Part shown: positions 5,363 through 49,329 of the stretch, one piece after another
Layout: each line of letters begins with the position of its first letter
How positions within the stretch are numbered: position 1 is the stretch's first letter
NCBI GenBank assembly: GCA_024276825.1
Contig: JAJRWI010000062.1
Location: 1-57,736 of the forward strand
DNA length: 57,736 nt
From: an archaeon
Lineage (GTDB): Archaea; Asgardarchaeota; Thorarchaeia; Thorarchaeales; Thorarchaeaceae
Reading direction: 5' to 3'
Program-made: the position numbers and the translations under genes
Notes under the pieces: generated by a model
Told to the model about the DNA's origin: nothing
The model's database searches: none
Seen by the model: only the letters and a program-made list of their open reading frames with translations

Positions 5363-6169
5363 CTATATGGACTCTATATTGGCAGGTTCGGTTTCAGTCC
5401 ACTCAGACGGAATGCCCGAGTAGAAAAACAAGTATGCCATAATCAGAAGGAATCCAAAGGGGGTACTTGGGATCGTAAACAGTGCAGCCCCAGAAACGAA
5501 TAAGACTATGGATATCAATTTTCCATGAGTCCCCAATGCAAGTTCCTTCTCAAGCATCCATAGCACAATGCCAGTGAATGTGAGTAGTATTCCAGCAAGA
5601 AGGCTTTGAGTGACCACAGCAAGAGTGAAATCGGGCATCGCATAGTACATTATGGTATGATATGTTGGGTCACGAAATTCCAGATCTGGTCCATTGACAA
5701 ATATTATGTACGAAATATATGCAAGGTTAAGGCTTAGAGCAATTGAGAGTATTGATCCCCAGAATGCCCAGTTCTCAGTGTAATTCTTGGCAAAACCATA
5801 GTACCCAAATGCCATTAGTAAGAAGCCAATGGAAAGACCAACATACGCATATGCTGGGCCAAGATAATCAATGTCATATCGTAAGTAGTAGAATATTGGG
5901 ATTCCCACAGCATTCTCTGGAGTCCAGACCATTGCCGTGAGTATCAATGGGAGTTGGCTCAGAGCACCAATAATCGTACCAATAAAACCAATCCAGAAAT
6001 ACTTGGCATCAAACCCCTCAATCCGTTTCTTTACCGTAGTCTTTGTACATTCAGCATGACAATACCAGCCTTGATACTTGATCACCTCTCGACCAGCAAG
6101 GGGCTCACCACAAAGAATGCAAGTAGCGGCAGGCTCATCATCCCGATTAGAATCAGTTGAGTCATTCAT
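5363..6169 (-). CDS. Polytopic membrane protein with N-terminal CxxC-x17-HxxC zinc finger
   Basis: CILCGEPL...WYCHAEC followed by about six hydrophobic segments. Confidence 0.7.
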   Translation of the reverse strand: MNDSTDSNRDDEPAATCILCGEPLAGREVIKYQGWYCHAECTKTTVKKRIEGFDAKYFWIGFIGTIIGALSQLPLILTAMVWTPENAVGIPIFYYLRYDIDYLGPAYAYVGLSIGFLLMAFGYYGFAKNYTENWAFWGSILSIALSLNLAYISYIIFVNGPDLEFRDPTYHTIMYYAMPDFTLAVVTQSLLAGILLTFTGIVLWMLEKELALGTHGKLISIVLFVSGAALFTIPSTPFGFLLIMAYLFFYSGIPSEWTETEPANIESI

Positions 6170-6397
6170 TAGTGAGATATCAACCTCGAAGTGAACTATA
6201 GATTATAAACAGATATGTTTTTCTTCATCTAATTGGGTACCATATTTTCTTCCATCATCATTTGAGCAGTTTTGACTCTGGCATTATTAGACTGTTAATA
6301 CAAGAATTCAGAAGGTCAACACTTGTCCAGCAGAGGTTTATTGGAGAACGGAGTGTCTTTCGCAGATGCAGAAAGCGGGAGTTTCTATGTTTTCTCC

Positions 6398-6436
6398 TTA
6401 TAAAGTATGTATTACTCACACACATATTACAATATG
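6398..6436 (+). promoter_or_regulatory. Putative TATA box with downstream inverted repeats, upstream of the RHH gene
   Basis: TTATAAAG (6398-6405), GTA-T-TAC (6409-6415), CATATT-AC-AATATG (6423-6436). Confidence 0.4.
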
Positions 6437-6597
6437 CTCTAGATTGCATCACGGTGATATTCCAATGCGGCTTGTCAAGGCGCCTAAGAAGCTAGTGGAA
6501 TGCCTTGATCACTTGGTGAGCATTCATTGCAATATTCCATTTGACCGCAAAAGGGAACTCATCATAAACAGAGAGAGGAAAAGCAGGAGGAAAAAGA

Positions 6598-39645: not shown

Positions 39646-40740
39646 TCAAAGCTCTATTTCATTCATATCAATTCCAAATTTCGGAAATATAAGCTGTTTG
39701 ACTTCGAGCACGTTTTCTCGAACGATAGCCCAAATGTCATCATCATCATCGAATGGCGGTTGTTGAGATGGAGGAATGTAATCATGACCAGTGAGAATTG
39801 ACATGACAACGCCAACACCCCAACATAATGCATCTGGATGATAGCCTCCGCCTGAGAGCACGCACAGCTGTCCATTACTGTATCGGTGAGATGCATTATG
39901 AATGAATTCTGCAACATATGCAATCATGTCAGTTGTGAGGTTCAGGTGTGCAAGACGGTCCATATAATGAGCATCATAACCAGGCAAGAAGAGAATGAAT
40001 TCAGGCTGAAACTTTTCAATTAGTGGGGGCACGAGTTCATCGAAGGCGTACTTGTATACATTGTTTCCTGAGTCCATTGGAAAATGCATGTTAATATTAT
40101 ATCCAAGCCCTTCGCCAAGACCAATATCTTTGATATGTCCATCATGTGGATACAACCACTCTGGGTCTTCATGAAATGAGATGATCATGACATCAGGGTC
40201 AGACATGAAGTATCGTTGTGTTCCATTTCCATGATGCACATCAAAGTCGGCTATCATTATTCTCTGAATACCATTGCCTCGCAAATACTGAACAGAAGCA
40301 GCAAGGTCATTGAACACACAGAAACCACCGCCGCCATCATAATGGGCATGATGGAATCCGCCTGTGGGCGAGAGGACATGTTCAATTTCACCACGAAGAA
40401 TTGCTCTGATTCCTGAAATTGTCCCGCCTGTAGAGATGCGTGCAGTGTCATAAATACCCTTGAACCCGGGCGTATCAATAGATATCTCACCCTCACCAGT
40501 TTCGGACATCTTCTTCACTCTAGATATGTAGTCCTTTGAGTGTATTTTGGCCAAGAGTTCAAGGGGCAGAGGCTTTGGTTCAACTATTCTGACATTTGGT
40601 TGTGATAGAAAGCCAGCTTCTCTCAGAAAGTCATGAATCATCTGGAATCTACCAACTCTTATTGGGTGCAATCGGCCGAAGTCGAATCGTTCAAGCAATG
40701 GACTCCAAATGAAGCCAGTCTTACAGTGATCATTAGTCAT
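39646..40740 (-). CDS. Zn-dependent histone deacetylase / AcuC family protein
   Basis: HP..R, GGFHHA, GFCVFND, DFDVHHGNGT, GYDAH, GGGY. Confidence 0.93.
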   Translation of the reverse strand: MTNDHCKTGFIWSPLLERFDFGRLHPIRVGRFQMIHDFLREAGFLSQPNVRIVEPKPLPLELLAKIHSKDYISRVKKMSETGEGEISIDTPGFKGIYDTARISTGGTISGIRAILRGEIEHVLSPTGGFHHAHYDGGGGFCVFNDLAASVQYLRGNGIQRIMIADFDVHHGNGTQRYFMSDPDVMIISFHEDPEWLYPHDGHIKDIGLGEGLGYNINMHFPMDSGNNVYKYAFDELVPPLIEKFQPEFILFLPGYDAHYMDRLAHLNLTTDMIAYVAEFIHNASHRYSNGQLCVLSGGGYHPDALCWGVGVVMSILTGHDYIPPSQQPPFDDDDDIWAIVRENVLEVKQLIFPKFGIDMNEIEL

Positions 40741-40806: not shown

Positions 40807-42240
40807 TTGCGGATACACCCCGTTGCAAAGATCTCAACGCCGGCCAATGTGTATTCTGTTTATGTTCGTCAACGGAAGGATGCAAGGTCGCAGATCTTTT
40901 CGCTCGATTATAGTGATAGAATGAGAATCTATGATGCTCGTGGCACTCTCAGGTCCACAAGAAAGTGGAGCAGTGAGGTCAGATGCATAGCAGTAGCTGA
41001 TATTGAGGGCGAGGGCAAGGATGCGGTTGTGGGAGGAGTTGGTAAGAAGGTCCTTGTTGTAGACCATCGGGGAAGGCCAATCTGGAACATTACTCTTGAG
41101 AGTTCTGTTGTTGCATGCGATGCCAGAGACATTGATGGCGATGGTGCAGCTGAAGTCGTTGTTGCACTTCATAACAGAAGAGTGATTCTCTGGAATGACG
41201 ATAAGAATGCCCTGTTCAGTAAGACTATGGAACGACCCATAACTGATGTCTGGCTAGAGGACATCACAAATGATACAGAATTGGAAGTTGTCATTGCTGA
41301 TAAGAAAGGACATGTCACAATACTCACTGCAGCTGGCTATCAGATTAAGGAGTTGCGACTCGGTGATTCAATAACAGCATTCGCGGTGCTGATTTTTGGT
41401 GAAAGAAGGCTCTTTGTCACTGGGAATCATAGCAAGACCCTGAAGATTTGGGACATTGATGGGAATCAGATCACTCAGATAGAAGTAGGCGCACCGCCGA
41501 AAGCAATGGCGACTGGTATTCCCGATGATATTTCAGACATCGCTTACTTGGTTGTCAGTACAAAAGATAAGAAACTGAGCTTCTGGGAGATTCAAGAAAC
41601 GGGAGAGGTTTCGCAGACAGAGTCAATCATTCTTCAACAGATTGCTTCTACAAAAGACACAATCTATCGTAGGGCTATCAAGTGTGGAAACTGTGGTGCT
41701 CCGGTTTCACCCGAGTCAGAAGTCTGTGAGTCTTGTGGTGCTCATCTTGAAATCATGGCAGAATATGTGATTGAAGAATTCATACAAGAGAGCATTGACT
41801 CTATCACTTCTAAGCACCCTAGAATCAAGTTGAGAGACCTTGATAGAATTCTACGTAGAACTCTGCCCCGACCTGCAGCATACAACCTGAGACGTTCTTT
41901 GCAGGCAATGATCCAGAGCGGTACAATAGAGGGACATATTGAGGGAAACATGTTCATTCGTAAGAAGATTGCAAGGCGGGTGAAAGCATCAAGCATGAGC
42001 ACCATCAAAAGAGCGCTCAAAGTTGTGCAAGATATTCTTCAGGAAAACAACACCCTTGATGTTGAGATGGTAGAAAAAGAAACAGGAATCGACAGGAGCA
42101 TTTTACGAAGGACGATTCTAATACTTCTAGGAGAGGGTGAGATCAATGGAACTTTCTCCGATGAAACATTCACATTGGATTCCAATCAGGATGCAACTGA
42201 GTTCTTAGAAAAACTGAAGGCAGAACTTGTTCAGGCATGA
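40807..42240 (+). CDS. FG-GAP/WD40 beta-propeller plus zinc ribbon plus two winged-helix (PCI-like) domains
   Basis: DIEGEG, DIDGDG and DITND repeats, LKIWD, LSFWE; CGNC..CESC; two GxIxG-type wing motifs. Confidence 0.7.
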   Translation: MRIHPVAKISTPANVYSVYVRQRKDARSQIFSLDYSDRMRIYDARGTLRSTRKWSSEVRCIAVADIEGEGKDAVVGGVGKKVLVVDHRGRPIWNITLESSVVACDARDIDGDGAAEVVVALHNRRVILWNDDKNALFSKTMERPITDVWLEDITNDTELEVVIADKKGHVTILTAAGYQIKELRLGDSITAFAVLIFGERRLFVTGNHSKTLKIWDIDGNQITQIEVGAPPKAMATGIPDDISDIAYLVVSTKDKKLSFWEIQETGEVSQTESIILQQIASTKDTIYRRAIKCGNCGAPVSPESEVCESCGAHLEIMAEYVIEEFIQESIDSITSKHPRIKLRDLDRILRRTLPRPAAYNLRRSLQAMIQSGTIEGHIEGNMFIRKKIARRVKASSMSTIKRALKVVQDILQENNTLDVEMVEKETGIDRSILRRTILILLGEGEINGTFSDETFTLDSNQDATEFLEKLKAELVQA

Positions 42241-42308: not shown

Positions 42309-45158
42309 GTGGACATTAGCAAGAGGATAATAATCATTTTTGTAACGGTTTCTTTAATTCCCATTTTAGTAATATCAGCAATCTCAGGATACACTATCTT
42401 TGGTGTGTCGCAAGAGAATGCCAACGACTCATCTCAGGCACTTCAAGCAGAAGAGCTTGCAAACCTGCAGAGGATTTCATCTGATACTGCTTTGTTCATT
42501 GATGAACGAATGCAACAGTATTTTGATGGAGTCTATATGATGGAACATTATGCAGAAGATCTGTTCAATGATAGAATCAATGCAACACCAAGATATTCCT
42601 ATTTTTGGGACCCCGTGCTTGAAGCAGGGAGGGGGCACCCAGTACCTGGCCTTACATCAGACTATTATGATATCTACGAGTCTACGCAGATCTCCTTTGA
42701 TGTGAGTTGCTATTACATGCCCCGCAGTTATTATCAGACACCAGGAGACCCATTTGATTGGAGTCCTAGTACACAGTACTTTATCGAGAAGTCAAGTAAT
42801 ATGGATAATGTGTTCAAGGCTCTTCATCAGATGAGCTCAGACTATATCTGGCTTTACATGGGGTTTGATGATCAGTATTGTGACAGCCACTTGTTTCGGA
42901 ACTATCCCTATGACAATCTAGAGTACTTCCTTAACTGGTATGGACCCGATGATGACTATGACCCACTTCGTGAAGACTGGTACAACAATGCTGCCAGTTT
43001 TACAAACGACTCAATAGCATTTACAAAACCTTATGGAGACCCATCTACAGGACTTGTCATATCAATGGGCAGACCTGTAAGGTTTGATAACGGCTCTCTA
43101 TTTGGAGTAGTTTCTGCGGATGTCACAATTGACACTCTTGTTTCCAGTGTGACAAACATCCAAGTTCTAGAGAGTGGCTATGCGTTCCTTCTCACTGATG
43201 ATGGTGATGTAATTACACATCCTGATTATGCAGAAGAAGGTCAGACAATATATGATCTTGAGTTTGGATCTTCAACAAGTCAGGAAGCCACTCAGTTTCA
43301 TCAGGTCATGACTAGCATTCTGAATTCGGCTTCAGGGCTTACAGAGTATTACAAGAACGGAAAGAAATGGTATCTTGCATTTACCAAGTCTTCCGTGACT
43401 GGCTTTGTACTTGCAATCGTTGTTCCCGCCAATGAGGTGATTCAACCCGCCCTGGATATTCTGAGCCTTGTGCAGAATAATACAATGACTATGACTATCA
43501 TACTCATTGGAGTTCTTGCACTGGTGGCAATCGTGGTGACCAAGGCATCATATAGCAAGGCAGAATCTGTTGTTAGACCCATTAAGGACATGACTACGCT
43601 TGTCAGGAAAATGGCCAAGCAGGACTTCACTCGAAGTGTGTATACTTCAGGTGCCATGTACGAGGAGGTGGGCACTACAGTAGATGCCCTGCTGAGCTTC
43701 CAAGAGGCATGCCGATTCGGAAATGAGGCATTTATCAGAGGGGATCTGAACAGGGCACTTTCCAACTATCAAAACCTCCTCGAGATAAGTCAACGTCTGA
43801 ACATTGAGGTCGGCGTCCAGACCATGTATCTGAACATCGGAAATGTGTTCAGACAACGTGGTGATGTTGATGACGCGCTGGATTATTACAACAAGGCGCT
43901 TGAGATTGCCAAGAAAATGCTGGAGAGAGCAAAGGAGCATGGCGCCAAAGAGGATGATGCATTAAACAGGATTGCCTCAGCATATCATAACATCGCACTT
44001 GTGGAGATGGACATGGAGAATTACGAGGAGGCAATTAGGTATCTGGAGGATGCAGAGGCCATCGACAAGACTCTAGGAAATATGAGAGGTCTTGCAAAGA
44101 GGTATGATGCTATGGGTCTTGTGTTCATGCATCAGGGTCGTGACAGTGAGGCACTCAGTAAGTTCAATGAAGCGATTAAGATTGCTACTGAGGAGCAGTA
44201 TGACAGGAGTCTTGCATACATACATTTCCACCTCGGCGAGTTCTACTTCGGACAGGAGAGATGGAGGGATGCTGAAGAGGAGTTCAGTAAGGCAATTGAG
44301 CTTGGGAAGAGGACTGATGAGATGTGGCTCGTAGTGTATGCTATGAACAACCTTGCTGAGGTCTATGATCAACTGGACAAGTCCAGTCATGAGCTGAGAG
44401 TAAAGGCAGAAAGGCTTCGAAGATCAATTCAGTATAGAAAGAGCGTGACATTTGTCATTGACTACTCTGGGAGCATGCGTGCAGAGGGACGAATCAAAGC
44501 TGCAATTGCTGGTGCGAAAGAGATACTCGACACCCAGATTAACCCTCAAGACCAAGTGGGAATCATCGTGTTCAATGCATCCTATAGGGAGTTGCTACCA
44601 TTGACTCCTAAGGGTGACTACGGTGATCCCAATGACAGCCCAATCATTCGCGCACTCGATTCATTGAAATACCCCAACAGTTCAACAGCATTCTACGACG
44701 CACTTGGAAAAGCCCTTGAAGAACTCGATAAGGTTGAATCAAGTGAGCATCGATGGATCATAGCACTCACAGATGGTGAGGACAATAGCTCCAAGAAGTA
44801 TTCACTTGATTGGATAGAGGGAATCTATTCTGAGAAAGATCGAATGAAGAGGAGGAAGAAGGCACGTCCGACAATTGAGGGATTCATCAAGGAGAAGCAT
44901 CTTGATGTGAACTTGATCATAATCGGTGTGGGTGGCGAATTGAGAAAGATTGTGGATCCACCTGTGCGCTCCAAGGAAACAGGCGAATACCTCACAATTG
45001 AGGATCTTCTGAAATCAGTCTGTGATCATGTGCCTCAGGGACAGTATATCTCTGTTGTACACAGCAGGGATGTGAAAGCTGATATACAGAGAGCATTCCA
45101 GCAGGTTGGAGTCATGATGGCCCAGTTGGAGGTGGGTGGATCAACAGTGGACTATTAG
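42309..45158 (+). CDS. Membrane receptor: TM-dCache_1-TM-HAMP-TPR-vWA
   Basis: Two TMs flanking a Cache region (YDPLREDWY, PYGD, GVVSADV, SGYAFLL..G.VITHP); HAMP (VRPIKDM...EEVG); TPRs; vWA with intact MIDAS (DYSGS, TAFYDA, TDGEDN). Confidence 0.85.
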   Translation: MDISKRIIIIFVTVSLIPILVISAISGYTIFGVSQENANDSSQALQAEELANLQRISSDTALFIDERMQQYFDGVYMMEHYAEDLFNDRINATPRYSYFWDPVLEAGRGHPVPGLTSDYYDIYESTQISFDVSCYYMPRSYYQTPGDPFDWSPSTQYFIEKSSNMDNVFKALHQMSSDYIWLYMGFDDQYCDSHLFRNYPYDNLEYFLNWYGPDDDYDPLREDWYNNAASFTNDSIAFTKPYGDPSTGLVISMGRPVRFDNGSLFGVVSADVTIDTLVSSVTNIQVLESGYAFLLTDDGDVITHPDYAEEGQTIYDLEFGSSTSQEATQFHQVMTSILNSASGLTEYYKNGKKWYLAFTKSSVTGFVLAIVVPANEVIQPALDILSLVQNNTMTMTIILIGVLALVAIVVTKASYSKAESVVRPIKDMTTLVRKMAKQDFTRSVYTSGAMYEEVGTTVDALLSFQEACRFGNEAFIRGDLNRALSNYQNLLEISQRLNIEVGVQTMYLNIGNVFRQRGDVDDALDYYNKALEIAKKMLERAKEHGAKEDDALNRIASAYHNIALVEMDMENYEEAIRYLEDAEAIDKTLGNMRGLAKRYDAMGLVFMHQGRDSEALSKFNEAIKIATEEQYDRSLAYIHFHLGEFYFGQERWRDAEEEFSKAIELGKRTDEMWLVVYAMNNLAEVYDQLDKSSHELRVKAERLRRSIQYRKSVTFVIDYSGSMRAEGRIKAAIAGAKEILDTQINPQDQVGIIVFNASYRELLPLTPKGDYGDPNDSPIIRALDSLKYPNSSTAFYDALGKALEELDKVESSEHRWIIALTDGEDNSSKKYSLDWIEGIYSEKDRMKRRKKARPTIEGFIKEKHLDVNLIIIGVGGELRKIVDPPVRSKETGEYLTIEDLLKSVCDHVPQGQYISVVHSRDVKADIQRAFQQVGVMMAQLEVGGSTVDY

Positions 45159-45167
45159 GAGGCGATT

Positions 45168-46619
45168 ATGATGGCGAAGACACCAGAATATACAAAGAAG
45201 AAGGGCAGTTTCCGAAGAAATGTGGTTGCCACATTCTTATTGATATCTGTTGTTTCATTGGGAGTGACTGGCGTCATTTCATTGAGCTTCTTCAATATAA
45301 TAGGGAACTATACGACTAACGAGAGTGCTAATGCGCTTAAGACACAGATTGAGAGAAACATGGAGCAGACAGCTGAACAGAATGCCCTTGTTATAAGACA
45401 GAAACTTGAAACTGCAGAATCGTTTGTGAGAACCATGGCTGAGGAATGCGAGGGTTTGTTTGCTAGTGATTCAACATTTCAACCCAGAGAAGTGTATTAT
45501 GACTACTTCTTCGAAAATCCCCTCGAAGGCCCGGCACCGTCTGACCTTCAGTGGGACAGTTGGAGAAATGTATGGCTCTCTTGGAACTACAGTAGTTGGT
45601 ATGTTCCCGGATCTAATTCCATAAACTACATTGATTACGAGAATCAGTATAGTGACATTTTACACAAGATATCAAATCTTGACTATATGTTCAAGTACAT
45701 TCACAATCAGGCACCCGAGTTCAGATGGCTCTATGTTGCATTCAGAAATGACATCTTCATCAATTATCCTGGAAGCATTGTGGGAGGCAGCAACGCGGAA
45801 CGGAACAATCCCGCTCAGCAGTTCAAAGCATCACAAGAAGAGTGGTACAGTGCAATCCTCGCGGGTCAGGGAGCTATTGTTTATGATGGCCCCTATTATG
45901 ACCCAATTGATGGAGTGCTATTGCTCTCAATTGGAAGAGCATTCTATCATGAGAATGGTACTGCATTGGGAATAATTGCTGGCGACATAACTGTCGATGA
46001 CATAAAATCAAAGGTCTTGGATGTGCGTGTGCTCGAGAGCGGCAATGCATCCCTGATCACAGCAGATGGCAGAATCGTTGCCCATCATGAGGTGAATGAT
46101 GCTGTCTATGCATACTACGAGCCGGATCTGCCGCCACTTTCAGACTTTGAAGCGGTTTCAGCAGCACAGATAGTACAGATAACTTCAGGAAACAGCGGGA
46201 CGATTGAATACACGGATAATGGAGAAGACATGGTCCTTGCCTATGCCCCTGTTGGAGTTGGAGGATACATCTGCATTATCATCGTGCCTGTTGATGAGGC
46301 CCTAGCGGCCATACCACAACTGCAAAGTAGGATAAATGAGACAAACAGTTCAGCGACCCTGTTCATCCTTGCAATAACGGTTGGTGGTATCGTGCTTGCT
46401 GGTGCGGCGGCTGTTGTTGTGACCAATCAGATAGCACGTCCCCTTCAGTACCTGATGGACCTTGCCATGAGAAATGTGGAGGCAATGATCAAGCAGGAGG
46501 ATATGAGTGCCGAGGACTTGCAGGTGGACACTTCATTCACCGAGCAGGATGACGAGATCGGAGAACTGGCACGTGCATTTCAGGGTATGCTAGAAACAAT
46601 CAGAGAAGATGAAGAGTAG
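45168..46619 (+). CDS. Membrane receptor without output domain: TM-dCache_1-TM-HAMP
   Basis: FKASQEEWY, PYYD, GIIAGDI, SGNASLI..GRIVAH; ends right after HAMP (DDEIGELARAFQGML). Confidence 0.85.
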   Translation: MMAKTPEYTKKKGSFRRNVVATFLLISVVSLGVTGVISLSFFNIIGNYTTNESANALKTQIERNMEQTAEQNALVIRQKLETAESFVRTMAEECEGLFASDSTFQPREVYYDYFFENPLEGPAPSDLQWDSWRNVWLSWNYSSWYVPGSNSINYIDYENQYSDILHKISNLDYMFKYIHNQAPEFRWLYVAFRNDIFINYPGSIVGGSNAERNNPAQQFKASQEEWYSAILAGQGAIVYDGPYYDPIDGVLLLSIGRAFYHENGTALGIIAGDITVDDIKSKVLDVRVLESGNASLITADGRIVAHHEVNDAVYAYYEPDLPPLSDFEAVSAAQIVQITSGNSGTIEYTDNGEDMVLAYAPVGVGGYICIIIVPVDEALAAIPQLQSRINETNSSATLFILAITVGGIVLAGAAAVVVTNQIARPLQYLMDLAMRNVEAMIKQEDMSAEDLQVDTSFTEQDDEIGELARAFQGMLETIREDEE

Positions 46620-46628
46620 TGTGTTATA

Positions 46629-48464
46629 ATGAGTGATGAGTGGTCGATAGACAAATCAAAACTAGTGTTCGGAGTTGGCAGGAATGACTTGCGGTTCCTC
46701 GATATAAACGAGGAGGGCGAACTTGTTCTGGTTATTAATGGCCACTCAATCACATTCTCTGAGATAGTTAGACGCATTGAGCAGGAGAATGGCAATCATC
46801 CAAGGTATACATCATCATTCACTCTGAGGATTCCACAACTGATCAGTTCTCAGGTATTAAGACTGAGAGCTGCTTTTGAGAATGCCCGTAATGAATTAGA
46901 ATACAATGGCCGCTTCTTGGCAGTATATCCTGTAAAGGTCAACCAGAGGTATGATTGTGTTGCTGCTGTTATTGCTTCAGACAAAGAGTACGGTCTTGAA
47001 GCTGGTACTAAGGCAGAACTCTTACTGATTAAAAGAATCATCAGCAATGAGAAACATCGTAGAATTGTCTGTAATGGTGCGAAGGACCCAGAGTATCTTA
47101 AAATGATCCATGAGTGCATCAAAGAAGGATACAATATGACAATATCCATCGAGTCCTTGCATGAAGCGAGTCTGATTATTGATAGATTCAATCCTGATGA
47201 AACGGAACTTGTCCTCAGATTAAAGCCCTATATAGAAGTCGAAGGGCATTGGTCCCACTCAATAGGCAGGGACTCAAAGTTTGGACTGAGTGTCCATGAT
47301 CTGTATGATGTTATTGATCTGTTTAAACGGACAGGTTTCATAAACTCGGTAACTACAATTCTGGCGCATGTTGGGTCGCAGATAGAGGATGTCACAAGCT
47401 TCAGACGATTTGGCAGGTACATGACAAGAATCTTCCACCAACTGAGAAGAATGGGGCTTGAAAATCTCAAAATCATCGATTTCGGTGGAGGCCTTGCCAT
47501 TGATTACACTAGCTCCAATCTTCCAGACTTCATGGAAACCTATGCTAGGATGTTGATTGAAGGAATTAAGGAGGGGCTCTCCGAAGTCTCAACAGAGGTT
47601 GAACCTGACATCCTGATTGAGGCTGGTCGGGGGATTACCGCTTTGGGATCTCTCGTGATTGTGAAGGCTCTTGAAGTACGTTCAGTGTTTCCACACAGGG
47701 ACGGACTCTCTGAGGAGTATGACAAGAAGAAGATTGCGTGGACCAAAAGAATTCAAGAAACCACAACACTCAAGGAACTGATTGATGTTTGGAACGAGTT
47801 TCACACAGAGCTCTCCTCGGAAGACCCACTATTGACAAAAACTCTTGATGATGAAGCTCTTGTTGGAGAGTTGGAAAGGGTAACCAGAGAACACATAGCA
47901 AAAGTGCTTGTTGCTAGAGGAGAGAGAGATTTCAAGCAGTTCAAACCAAACAGAGATCTCTGGTATCCCGAGCATATTGTTATTGGAAACTTCAGCGTGT
48001 TCAATTCAATAGGCGACTACGTGCTTGTGGATCAGCACTTCCCAATCATTCCAATTCGGGACCTCAATGTACGCCCTGAAACCACCGTAAGACTCGTTGA
48101 CATCACTTGCGACTCAGATGGTGAGTGCTCGCGTTTCTTCAGACCTGCATATGACATGATACTCTTTACTAGAGATCACAGACCCTTGACCATGCCTACA
48201 TCTCAATTTAATCAAGGCATTCCAGTGGGCATTCTGGGAAATGTGCAGGGTTCTTGTTTTGTCATTGCACTTACAGGTGCATATCAAGATGTGATTGAGA
48301 TGGATCACAACTTACTCGGAGACCTCCCTGATGTGCAAATCACTGTGAATGACAATGGAGAGTGGACATTGCTCTGGTTGGAGGGCGCTGAAACCATGCA
48401 AGAAATTCTCCGGGAAGTCGGCTTTGACATAGAAACAAAATATGATCCTTACATGTCAGACTAG
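46629..48464 (+). CDS. speA: Biosynthetic PLP-dependent arginine decarboxylase (fold III)
   Basis: VYPVKVNQ (PLP Lys), GLEAGTKAEL, CNGAKD, SKFGL, HVGSQI, DFGGGLAIDY, TCDSDG, GAYQD. Confidence 0.85.
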   Translation: MSDEWSIDKSKLVFGVGRNDLRFLDINEEGELVLVINGHSITFSEIVRRIEQENGNHPRYTSSFTLRIPQLISSQVLRLRAAFENARNELEYNGRFLAVYPVKVNQRYDCVAAVIASDKEYGLEAGTKAELLLIKRIISNEKHRRIVCNGAKDPEYLKMIHECIKEGYNMTISIESLHEASLIIDRFNPDETELVLRLKPYIEVEGHWSHSIGRDSKFGLSVHDLYDVIDLFKRTGFINSVTTILAHVGSQIEDVTSFRRFGRYMTRIFHQLRRMGLENLKIIDFGGGLAIDYTSSNLPDFMETYARMLIEGIKEGLSEVSTEVEPDILIEAGRGITALGSLVIVKALEVRSVFPHRDGLSEEYDKKKIAWTKRIQETTTLKELIDVWNEFHTELSSEDPLLTKTLDDEALVGELERVTREHIAKVLVARGERDFKQFKPNRDLWYPEHIVIGNFSVFNSIGDYVLVDQHFPIIPIRDLNVRPETTVRLVDITCDSDGECSRFFRPAYDMILFTRDHRPLTMPTSQFNQGIPVGILGNVQGSCFVIALTGAYQDVIEMDHNLLGDLPDVQITVNDNGEWTLLWLEGAETMQEILREVGFDIETKYDPYMSD

Positions 48465-48519
48465 ATTGCCAGATGATTTAATTCATAAGTCTAACAAAGA
48501 TATTCTCGATGAGCGCAAA

Positions 48520-49329
48520 ATGAACAAATCACTCTCAGAAAAGATCAGCAGAATACATGAGATGTTTGAGGGAAAAAAGGTTCTAGTTGCCTTTAGCGGC
48601 GGTGTCGATAGTTCCACATTGGCAGCAATAGCCAAGACCTGCGCAAAGTCTGTAAATCTGATCTTCGTGGATGGCACTCTTACTCCCGATGAAGATGTCG
48701 TTTATGCAAGGAAAGTGGCAGATGAACTCGGTATCGACTTGACTGTCATAGAAATAGACCAATTAGAAGACCCCAAGTTCAGGGGAAATCCAATAGACCG
48801 CTGCTATTTATGCAAGAAGGGCCTCTCGAAGGAATGGATTCGTTTCGGGAACGAGATTGGGGCAGACATTATTGTTGATGGCACCAATGCCAGCGATCTT
48901 AACGAGTATCGTCCTGGGAAGAGGGCACTGAAAGAGGCAGGAGTCAGATCTCCATTCCTAGAGGTGGGAATGACAAAGAAAGATATCAGAGAGTATGCGA
49001 GATCGATTGATCTGTCCGTGGGCGACAGGCCATCAATGGCATGCTTTGGCTCAAGGTTCCCCTACAATACTGAAATCACACCCGAGAGAGTCAGGAAGAT
49101 AGCCGAGGTCGAGAGAATCGCGAGAGAAGTGTTTGGAATCAGAACCCTCAGAGCAAGGTATCATGGAAACCTAGTCAGACTTGAGATTGGACGCGATGAG
49201 CGACACAAGGCCTTTGATGAGAGTCTTCTGGATCAGTTTGTAGAGCTTGTGAAATCTGTGGGCTTCACATATGTCGCCATAGATGCATTTGGGTACAGAG
49301 CAGGGTCAATGAACGAGGGAACATCTTAG
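48520..49329 (+). CDS. larE: LarE-family ATP-dependent sulfur transferase (TIGR00268-like)
   Basis: AFSGGVDS PP-loop, RCYLCK, DGTNASD, RPG, PSMACFGSRFPY, GYRAGSMN. Confidence 0.88.
   Translation: MNKSLSEKISRIHEMFEGKKVLVAFSGGVDSSTLAAIAKTCAKSVNLIFVDGTLTPDEDVVYARKVADELGIDLTVIEIDQLEDPKFRGNPIDRCYLCKKGLSKEWIRFGNEIGADIIVDGTNASDLNEYRPGKRALKEAGVRSPFLEVGMTKKDIREYARSIDLSVGDRPSMACFGSRFPYNTEITPERVRKIAEVERIAREVFGIRTLRARYHGNLVRLEIGRDERHKAFDESLLDQFVELVKSVGFTYVAIDAFGYRAGSMNEGTS

Follow-up and report, generated by a model that had tools for sequence, protein, structure and literature searches.

The 57,736-nt contig JAJRWI010000062.1 of the Thorarchaeaceae assembly GCA_024276825.1, referred to here over its whole length as the window, encodes a 949-amino-acid membrane receptor at positions 42309-45158 (+), which was named LONG. 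The region 43560-45158, which an initial annotation had described as a HAMP-TPR-vWA receptor output, corresponds to the C-terminal 532 residues (418-949) of this single open reading frame (ORF). Based on sequence comparison and structure prediction, we propose with moderate confidence that this region serves as cytoplasmic arm to the longer of two subunits in a transmembrane (TM) sensor, in which ligand binding would reposition a docking arm. From the N- to the C-terminus, LONG consists of a TM segment, a dCache_1 domain, a second TM segment, a HAMP-like unit, six tetratricopeptide repeats (TPRs), a von Willebrand factor type A (vWA) domain and an acidic tail. Its gene is followed by that of a shorter paralogue (SHORT) and preceded by that of a soluble beta-propeller protein (PROP).

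In the proposed mechanism, LONG and SHORT would form a heterodimer with two outward-facing Cache pockets and one inward-facing arm. Binding of a ligand would be relayed via the HAMP bundle and would move the rigid TPR-vWA arm, and this motion would change which partner is held on the vWA domain's MIDAS (metal ion-dependent adhesion site), in the TPR groove or at the tail. The best candidate for this docking partner would be the upstream propeller protein, in which the propeller is joined by a zinc ribbon and a pair of winged helices that could pass the signal on. The initial suggestion that the ligand switches a protein-protein interaction surface fits an arm that is predicted to be rigid and is free of indels.

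Domain make-up of LONG and its HAMP-TPR-vWA arm

The extracellular dCache_1 ectodomain (residues 30-391; 42396-43481, +) was assigned by Pfam and by profile matches to PDB structures. The Pfam dCache_1 match covers residues 212-370 (52.3 bits, cut-off 45), and the first PDC module was found at residues 171-277. Matches to TPR_12, TPR_1 and TPR_2 span residues ~470-690, followed by VWA_2 at 713-824 (E 1.5e-14, 55 bits) and VWA at 713-831. Among 55 representatives of the family, dCache_1, TPR_12 and VWA were each matched by Pfam in 54. The output had been described as lacking an enzymatic or methyl-accepting chemotaxis protein (MCP) domain, and indeed no kinase, cyclase, phosphatase or MCP family was matched in LONG by Pfam and NCBIfam. 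This non-enzymatic character was retained, while the idea of a stand-alone receptor output was not, LONG being one subunit of a conserved long and short pair with a linked beta-propeller protein.

Two hydrophobic segments are present in LONG, at residues ~7-29 and 392-412. Two K/R residues precede the first of these segments (TM1), while the 21 residues after it hold no K/R and four acidic residues; four K/R are located in the 21 residues following the second (TM2). By the positive-inside rule, the N-terminus is predicted to lie inside and the Cache domain outside, with the HAMP-TPR-vWA part in the cytoplasm. The topology prediction therefore returned the location that had been put forward for the vWA domain.

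The HAMP-like unit (residues 420-466; 43566-43706, +) was modelled by AlphaFold2 as a helix, a connector and a second helix, with the helices at 416-436 and 452-476. Its Pfam match in LONG is below threshold. The Lokiarchaeum orthologue reaches 23.4 bits, and for 16 of the 55 family members the HAMP match has E <= 0.001. Because of the sub-threshold match, the matching relatives and the helix-connector-helix model, 'HAMP-like' is a fair wording for this unit. The six TPR pairs with a capping helix follow at residues 467-707 (43707-44429, +; TPR_12 E 1e-26, AlphaFold2, Foldseek). In the AlphaFold2 model of residues 415-949 (pLDDT 89.2, pTM 0.78), 12 helices lie between residues 452 and 707, which form six helix pairs and agree with the estimate of about six TPRs made from the sequence alone. 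In the model, one unbroken helix (452-476) serves as the second helix of the HAMP and the first of the TPRs, and from E452 to N512 all 55 family members have the same length of 61 residues, with no indels over the junction. The HAMP was thus correctly described as running directly into the repeats. The first HAMP helix and the connector together comprise 27-31 residues in the same members, except for one with 37. At the other end, the capping helix (694-707) leads into the first vWA strand in the model. Since the junction has a fixed length in the 55 members and the helix 452-476 is continuous, the modelled arm looks like a rigid lever fixed to the HAMP output helix.

Structural comparison by Foldseek showed that the TPR part is closest to LGN/Pins and kinesin light chain, both of which are peptide-binding scaffolds. 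A solved structure that joins such a TPR array with a vWA domain was not found; the best TM-score normalised to the query was 0.36, and the best structural matches to the 415-949 model look like TPR-only proteins.

The vWA domain extends over residues 708-940 (44430-45128, +), with an insertion at ~830-865, and was identified by Pfam (VWA_2/VWA), AlphaFold2 and Foldseek. The AlphaFold2 model of the vWA part (residues 688-949) has a pLDDT of 87.9 and a pTM of 0.85. Its fold matches are BatB (3ibs, the best), TFIIH p44/Ssl1, CMG2/TEM8, Rpn10, ITIH and integrin I domains, while the vWA profile matches ITIH4, CLCA1, CMG2 and BatB among solved structures. The MIDAS, claimed to be complete, is complete: D718-Y-S720-G-S722 (D-x-S-x-S codons at 44460-44474, +), T793 (44685-44687, +) and D822, the latter within TDG (44772-44774, +). 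None of the five residues varies among 24 close orthologues. When 55 relatives with identities as low as ~20% are compared, D718, S720, T793 and D822 remain invariant and S722 is at least 90% conserved. The conservation pattern supports strong purifying selection on the MIDAS.

Straight after the last vWA helix, alignments revealed an acidic C-terminal tail (E941-V-G-G-S-T-V-D-Y; 45129-45155, +) with the family motif hydrophobic-x-V-E-[G/S]-hydrophobic. In Asgard archaea the motif reads Q-[LV]-[ED]-V-E-G-F-x-x-D, while the virus and protist proteins terminate at ...V-E-S-L. The last eight residues of LONG are disordered (pLDDT < 50) in both the vWA-only and the HAMP-TPR-vWA models. Docking of the tail in cis, to the TPR groove or to the MIDAS, was considered and received no support from AlphaFold2, the tail staying below that value in both. 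MIDAS sites are known to bind a partner Glu, as in integrins and in midasin with the WD40 protein WDR12 (PMC6509490), and in integrin alpha-I a conserved acidic residue after the C-terminal helix is the intrinsic ligand for a second MIDAS (PMC4495637). By analogy, the tail Glu of LONG would hold the same position as this intrinsic-ligand residue.

The SHORT paralogue, the predicted ligand pocket and the propeller protein

The SHORT gene (45168-46619, +) begins 9 nt past the LONG stop codon. Its 483-amino-acid product contains a TM segment, a dCache_1 domain (76 bits in Pfam), a second TM segment and a canonical HAMP also matched by Pfam, and no output domain. The prokaryotic locus search covered one genome per prokaryotic species, of which the best 80 loci were compared. 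SHORT comes next on the same strand in all Asgard loci that could be read downstream of LONG, with a gap of ~2-20 nt in nearly all of them. At a giant-virus locus (L102), the gene immediately upstream of LONG is a SHORT homologue. Fused proteins of 1500-1640 amino acids also occur, with four TM segments and a SHORT-like half N-terminal to LONG. For five of the six fused proteins tested, the N-terminal half matches SHORT best; that of the chrysophyte protein from Mallomonas gave a single weak match, to LONG. In the tree, all six fall in the SHORT clade.

This tree was based on the shared Cache-TM-HAMP part of 67 rows (IQ-TREE, short search) and was rooted between the paralogues. LONG and SHORT are reciprocally monophyletic (SH-aLRT 99), and the order of clades is the same in both halves. 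These sequence relationships show that LONG and SHORT are ancient paralogues, and since their clade orders match, the duplication is older than the split of the sampled Asgard classes. Conserved adjacency together with natural fusion is a classic signature of physical partnership. We infer from this gene arrangement that LONG and SHORT form a heterodimer.

The amino-acid-binding motif of dCache_1 domains is defined in PctA by Y121, R126, W128, Y129, Y144 and D173 (PMC8915833). At these positions LONG carries Y217, E222, W224, Y225, Y242 and D271. It thus fails the full dCache_1AA motif by having E222 at the R126 position, where SHORT has E224. The full motif is present in Loki LONG and SHORT, in a Heimdall subgroup and in almost all giant-virus LONG proteins. 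In Thor and the main Heimdall clade, the Y, W, Y, Y and D residues are kept in both subunits, with Glu, Asp or Gln at the Arg position. The gene next to SHORT encodes a pyridoxal phosphate-dependent Orn/Arg decarboxylase-like protein (ADC; 611 amino acids; 46629-48464, +; Pfam Orn_Arg_deC_N) and starts 9 nt after it. Arg is absent from the R126 position in all 48 ADC-linked loci, mostly with Glu or Asp in its place, and none of the six loci that have Arg in LONG has ADC as a neighbour. Amine sensors are reported to have arisen from amino-acid sensors in which the Arg that binds the carboxylate was lost, while the Asp that binds the amino group and the aromatic residues were kept; dCache_1AM domains are defined by an AM_motif and by an insertion bearing a conserved Arg-Asp pair over the pocket (PMC10589655). 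LONG was compared with this class for the aromatic and Asp positions common to both and for the absence of the Arg. Because the Arg is lost, the Asp and aromatic residues are kept and ADC is the next gene, the ligand in the Thor lineage is probably a cationic amine, for example agmatine (the ADC product) or a polyamine. The Loki and giant-virus members, in which the Arg is kept, probably sense amino acids.

Upstream of LONG, PROP (40807-42240, +) encodes a soluble protein with an FG-GAP/BBS2-like beta-propeller, a zinc ribbon and two winged helices, as assigned by Pfam; no hydrophobic segment was found in it. The zinc ribbon was detected in 17 of 17 orthologues. In those Thor loci that could be read on the upstream side, PROP precedes LONG, and a related propeller gene adjoins the pair in the Loki, Hermod and Sigyn loci and in three Heimdall/Hod loci. 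Within the GTDB family of the window, a PROP orthologue was found in 14 of 14 assessable genomes bearing LONG and in none of the four genomes without it. One related Thorarchaeota genome (G003) has lost, by a single deletion, everything between propeller residue 67 and SHORT residue 378, the whole of LONG included. The scar (L104, G003:C7:9000-21000, ~5985-6454) retains a 39-residue propeller remnant (residues 29-67) and a frameshifted SHORT remnant (residues 378-482), while the ADC and HDAC-like genes on either side are intact. The whole block is present in G018, a member of the same genus.

In Thor and most Heimdall-type loci the ADC gene is adjacent, which is not the case in the Loki, Hermod and Sigyn loci. 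Three of the four genomes that lost the receptors still have it. Because PROP shares the presence and loss of the receptors while ADC outlasts them, the functional unit consists of propeller, LONG and SHORT, with ADC as a lineage-specific associate that is not obligate.

Several observations weigh against the proposed sensor or parts of it. The topology of LONG is a prediction by the positive-inside rule. The HAMP match of LONG (PF00672) reaches 16.6 bits (E 0.0098), where the Pfam cut-off is 25 bits, and covers the first helix only. The heterodimer is drawn from synteny and fusion, and each subunit may instead form homodimers. In the giant-virus locus the propeller gene is not a neighbour, and it was not seen inside the fetched flanks of several Heimdall-type loci; outside Thorarchaeota, only the propeller part of PROP is conserved. 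As to the ligand, the correlation between the Arg-to-Glu change and ADC reflects few independent events because the counted genomes are related, and the Hermod and Sigyn loci carry Glu or Asp with no adjacent ADC gene.

Further matches were observed in both proteins of the candidate docking pair. A PCI match was found in nine of the 17 PROP orthologues (best E 1.1e-5); it corresponds to the last winged helix, within the C-terminal half (41653-42237), and is mostly sub-threshold. Against solved structures, this half gave zinc-ribbon noise only (E >= 0.2). The TPR array of LONG has a weak RPN7 match (E 7.9e-5). TPR-like repeats with a PCI winged helix are the build of proteasome-lid, CSN and eIF3 subunits, and the two matches may hint at the docking mode of LONG and PROP. 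A propeller related to that of PROP (25-31% identity over ~180 residues) is also present in a protein of ~2270 amino acids in several Thorarchaeota genomes (G003:C1:304537-305073 and matching places in G008, G012, G013, G014, G017 and G018).

Comparison with known systems and alternative explanations

Transmembrane sensors of bacteria and archaea are normally sorted by their enzymatic or chemotaxis output. The LONG family has neither. Whether its architecture had already been characterised was checked, and no published description of a Cache-HAMP-TPR-vWA protein or its relatives was found in the literature searchable here. The sensor half is a classical Cache-HAMP receptor, while that literature contains no account of the proposed heteromeric build or of a TPR-vWA docking output. 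If the arm docks in a regulated manner, it would be a prokaryotic case of the adaptor-recruiting receptor logic usually tied to eukaryotes.

The sensors of the dCache_1AA class (PctA/PctB/PctC, Mlp24/Mlp37; PMC8915833) and the amine sensors of the dCache_1AM class (PctD, PacA, McpX; Cerna-Vargas et al. 2023, PMC10589655) share with LONG the extracellular fold, the TM-Cache-TM-HAMP topology (HAMP-like in LONG) and the pocket positions. Unlike these sensors, LONG has a TPR-vWA output in place of an MCP, kinase, cyclase or phosphatase, belongs to a conserved paralogous pair and has the Arg replaced by Glu.

The alpha2delta/CACHD1 subunits resemble LONG in having dCache_1 domains and one MIDAS-bearing vWA domain. 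Among solved structures, the ectodomain profile ranks alpha2delta-1 (85.9 bits, E 2e-23) and CACHD1 (77.4 bits, E 9e-21) at the top; the alpha2delta-1 score is composed of two split-Cache pieces (27.6 + 48.7) and a weak third stretch, whereas the bacterial Mlp37, PctB and PctA score 74-77 bits in a single piece each. A specific kinship of the vWA domains was not found: the LONG vWA profile gave no match to alpha2delta among solved structures at E <= 0.01. All eukaryotic dCache_1 proteins are reported to carry the vWA inserted in the Cache domain, and the eukaryotic domain was attributed to bacterial transfer (Gumerov et al. 2022, PMC8915833). The alpha2delta vWA is accordingly Cache-inserted and extracellular, with no TM-HAMP-TPR part, whereas that of LONG follows TM2, HAMP and the TPRs. 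The parallel to these subunits drawn initially could thus be kept for the Cache half, which scores like that of bacterial chemoreceptors, and not for the vWA domain, for which profile, domain order and membrane side all differ.

Three further systems use a MIDAS-bearing vWA domain. ArnA-ArnB of Sulfolobus acidocaldarius (PMC6509490) is likewise an archaeal regulatory system with a MIDAS vWA in a regulated complex with a zinc-finger-bearing partner, and a Glu of the partner was proposed to occupy the MIDAS there (PMC6509490). The LONG vWA profile weakly matches vWA2 of an ArnB homologue structure (5a8j, E 1.1e-4). The Arn vWA protein is soluble, with a beta-sandwich and a phosphorylated four-helix bundle, and its zinc-finger partner carries an FHA domain, while neither LONG nor SHORT nor the propeller protein gave an FHA, beta-sandwich or four-helix bundle match in Pfam. 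Integrins (PMC4495637) are non-enzymatic receptors with a MIDAS vWA beside an FG-GAP-type propeller and an acidic residue after the C-terminal vWA helix. Their heads are extracellular with both parts on TM subunits, whereas here the vWA and the propeller are predicted to be cytoplasmic and the propeller is soluble, so that the resemblance of LONG and PROP is an analogy. The MoxR-vWA systems (BatA-E; Kaur et al. 2020, PMC7159879) combine MIDAS vWA, TPR and beta-propeller and include BatB, the best fold match. They differ in domain order and have no Cache-HAMP sensor, and no MoxR was found among the screened ORFs beside the receptor genes.

Other explanations of the arm were considered. It might bind or release ADC, so that an external amine would feed back on agmatine or polyamine synthesis with the propeller protein as an accessory only. 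The position of ADC two genes downstream of LONG, its adjacency in Thor and most Heimdall-type loci and the Arg-to-Glu change that tracks this linkage would agree with such control, and RavA-ViaA, a MoxR-vWA pair, has been reported to act on a lysine decarboxylase complex (PMC7159879). However, the Loki, Hermod, Sigyn and giant-virus loci contain the pair without an adjacent ADC, ADC stays where the receptors are deleted, and it is the propeller gene that shares their presence and loss, which makes control of ADC by the arm unlikely. Equally doubtful is a constitutive scaffold or adhesion-type anchor, in which the Cache domains would serve surface contact and the arm would permanently tether a cytoplasmic complex in an integrin-like manner. 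The lack of an enzymatic output, the MIDAS vWA beside an FG-GAP-like propeller recalling the integrin head, the conserved Glu past the last vWA helix recalling the alpha-I 'intrinsic ligand' (PMC4495637) and the likeness of the TPRs to the LGN/Pins and kinesin light chain scaffolds could all be read in this way. A permanent anchor is at odds with the pocket residues (Y, W, Y, Y, D) conserved in both subunits, as for small-molecule binding, and with a HAMP unit whose fixed-length junction points to conformational signalling.

Very unlikely in our view is a vWA domain that serves a MoxR AAA+ ATPase as co-chaperone adaptor, as in the Bat or the ternary MoxR-vWA systems, with the receptor feeding substrates to MoxR. 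BatB (3ibs) is the best structural match of the vWA and the ternary systems hold vWA proteins with TPRs and beta-propellers (PMC7159879), but no MoxR was found among the receptor-adjacent ORFs screened against Pfam, and the only clear MoxR of the genome lies on another contig (C7), in its own operon with a DUF58/vWA protein. A chemotaxis function was rejected together with the MoxR role: no MCP signalling domain (PF00015) was found in LONG or anywhere in the 98.3% complete genome, in which LONG and SHORT are the sole dCache_1 genes, and MoxR has its own vWA partner elsewhere. The least probable explanation, and one we regard as scarcely credible, is an archaeal counterpart of alpha2delta/CACHD1 acting as auxiliary ion-channel subunit. 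Both systems comprise two dCache_1 domains and one MIDAS vWA, and the ectodomain profile ranks the two channel subunits first. This rank results from summed split stretches and is per domain equal to that of bacterial amino-acid sensors; the vWA profile misses alpha2delta, the LONG vWA is C-terminal and predicted to be cytoplasmic in place of Cache-inserted and extracellular (PMC8915833), and no conserved channel gene is present among the neighbours matched across loci. The two-subunit sensor with a ligand-controlled docking arm is preferred to these explanations.

Distribution of the family and neighbouring genes

At least 120 full-length LONG orthologues with 59-82% identity carry Thorarchaeota-type labels. 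LONG is among the better conserved Asgard membrane proteins (~60% identity across Thorarchaeota). A scan of 1.84 billion cluster representatives yielded ~100 further clusters of 850-950 amino acids that align end to end at 22-45% identity. The Asgard carriers include Thor, Heimdall/Hodarchaeum, Hermod, Promethearchaeum, Sigynarchaeum and Lokiarchaeum ossiferum (complete genome, L090). Lokiarchaeum ossiferum is in culture, and the system offers a direct test of amine or amino-acid sensing by Asgard cells.

The best 80 prokaryotic loci belong to Asgard archaea by label, except for one record labelled Candidatus Bathyarchaeia (DATKZI010000011.1, L074). This record carries a Heimdall-type LONG-SHORT-ADC block with 35-40% identity to the window, and its label looks like a binning or labelling error and not like an occurrence outside Asgard archaea. 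No bacterial LONG member was found in the scan of cluster representatives or in the search of one genome per prokaryotic species.

The most distant full-length relatives are non-prokaryotic and come from giant-virus metagenome-assembled genomes (MAGs) and a protist, and the system itself belongs to the archaea most closely related to eukaryotes. P0193 is encoded on a giant-virus MAG contig, P0164 is annotated as 'uncultured virus' on a 650-kb contig, and P0229 is a 1636-amino-acid protein of the chrysophyte Mallomonas annulata. The linear Cache-TM-TPR-vWA order of the Mallomonas and giant-virus proteins is not listed in PMC8915833, as only the Cache-inserted vWA is given there for eukaryotes. 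In the tree, the virus and protist rows nest inside the Asgard diversity beside a Heimdall subgroup, with support of 97 for LONG and 85-86 for SHORT. This placement is a lead and not a result, because the tree search was short and some branches are long. Larger relatives were also observed (P0250, 2134 amino acids; P0163, 3107 amino acids), the former of which has extra N-terminal sequence, a Cache region matching both LONG and SHORT and then a LONG-like half.

A broader evolutionary scenario would regard LONG and SHORT with the TPR-vWA arm as an Asgard-born system of integrin-like signalling that was inherited by eukaryotes and possibly gave rise to the pairing of dCache_1 and vWA in alpha2delta/CACHD1. 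There, the MIDAS, the Glu after the vWA and the FG-GAP-type propeller would constitute a ligand-controlled cytoplasmic complex. We consider this scenario improbable.

Two further genes flank the block in the window. A PP-loop ATPase-like gene (48442-49329, +; 295 amino acids, SGGVDSS motif) overlaps the 3' end of ADC by 23 nt and may be on the same transcript; such a gene also follows ADC in several other Thor loci. On the other side, an HDAC-family gene (39646-40740, -), for which a possible link to polyamine deacetylation was considered, is divergent to the block in most Thor loci and directly abuts ADC in G006 (L106), where the receptors are absent.

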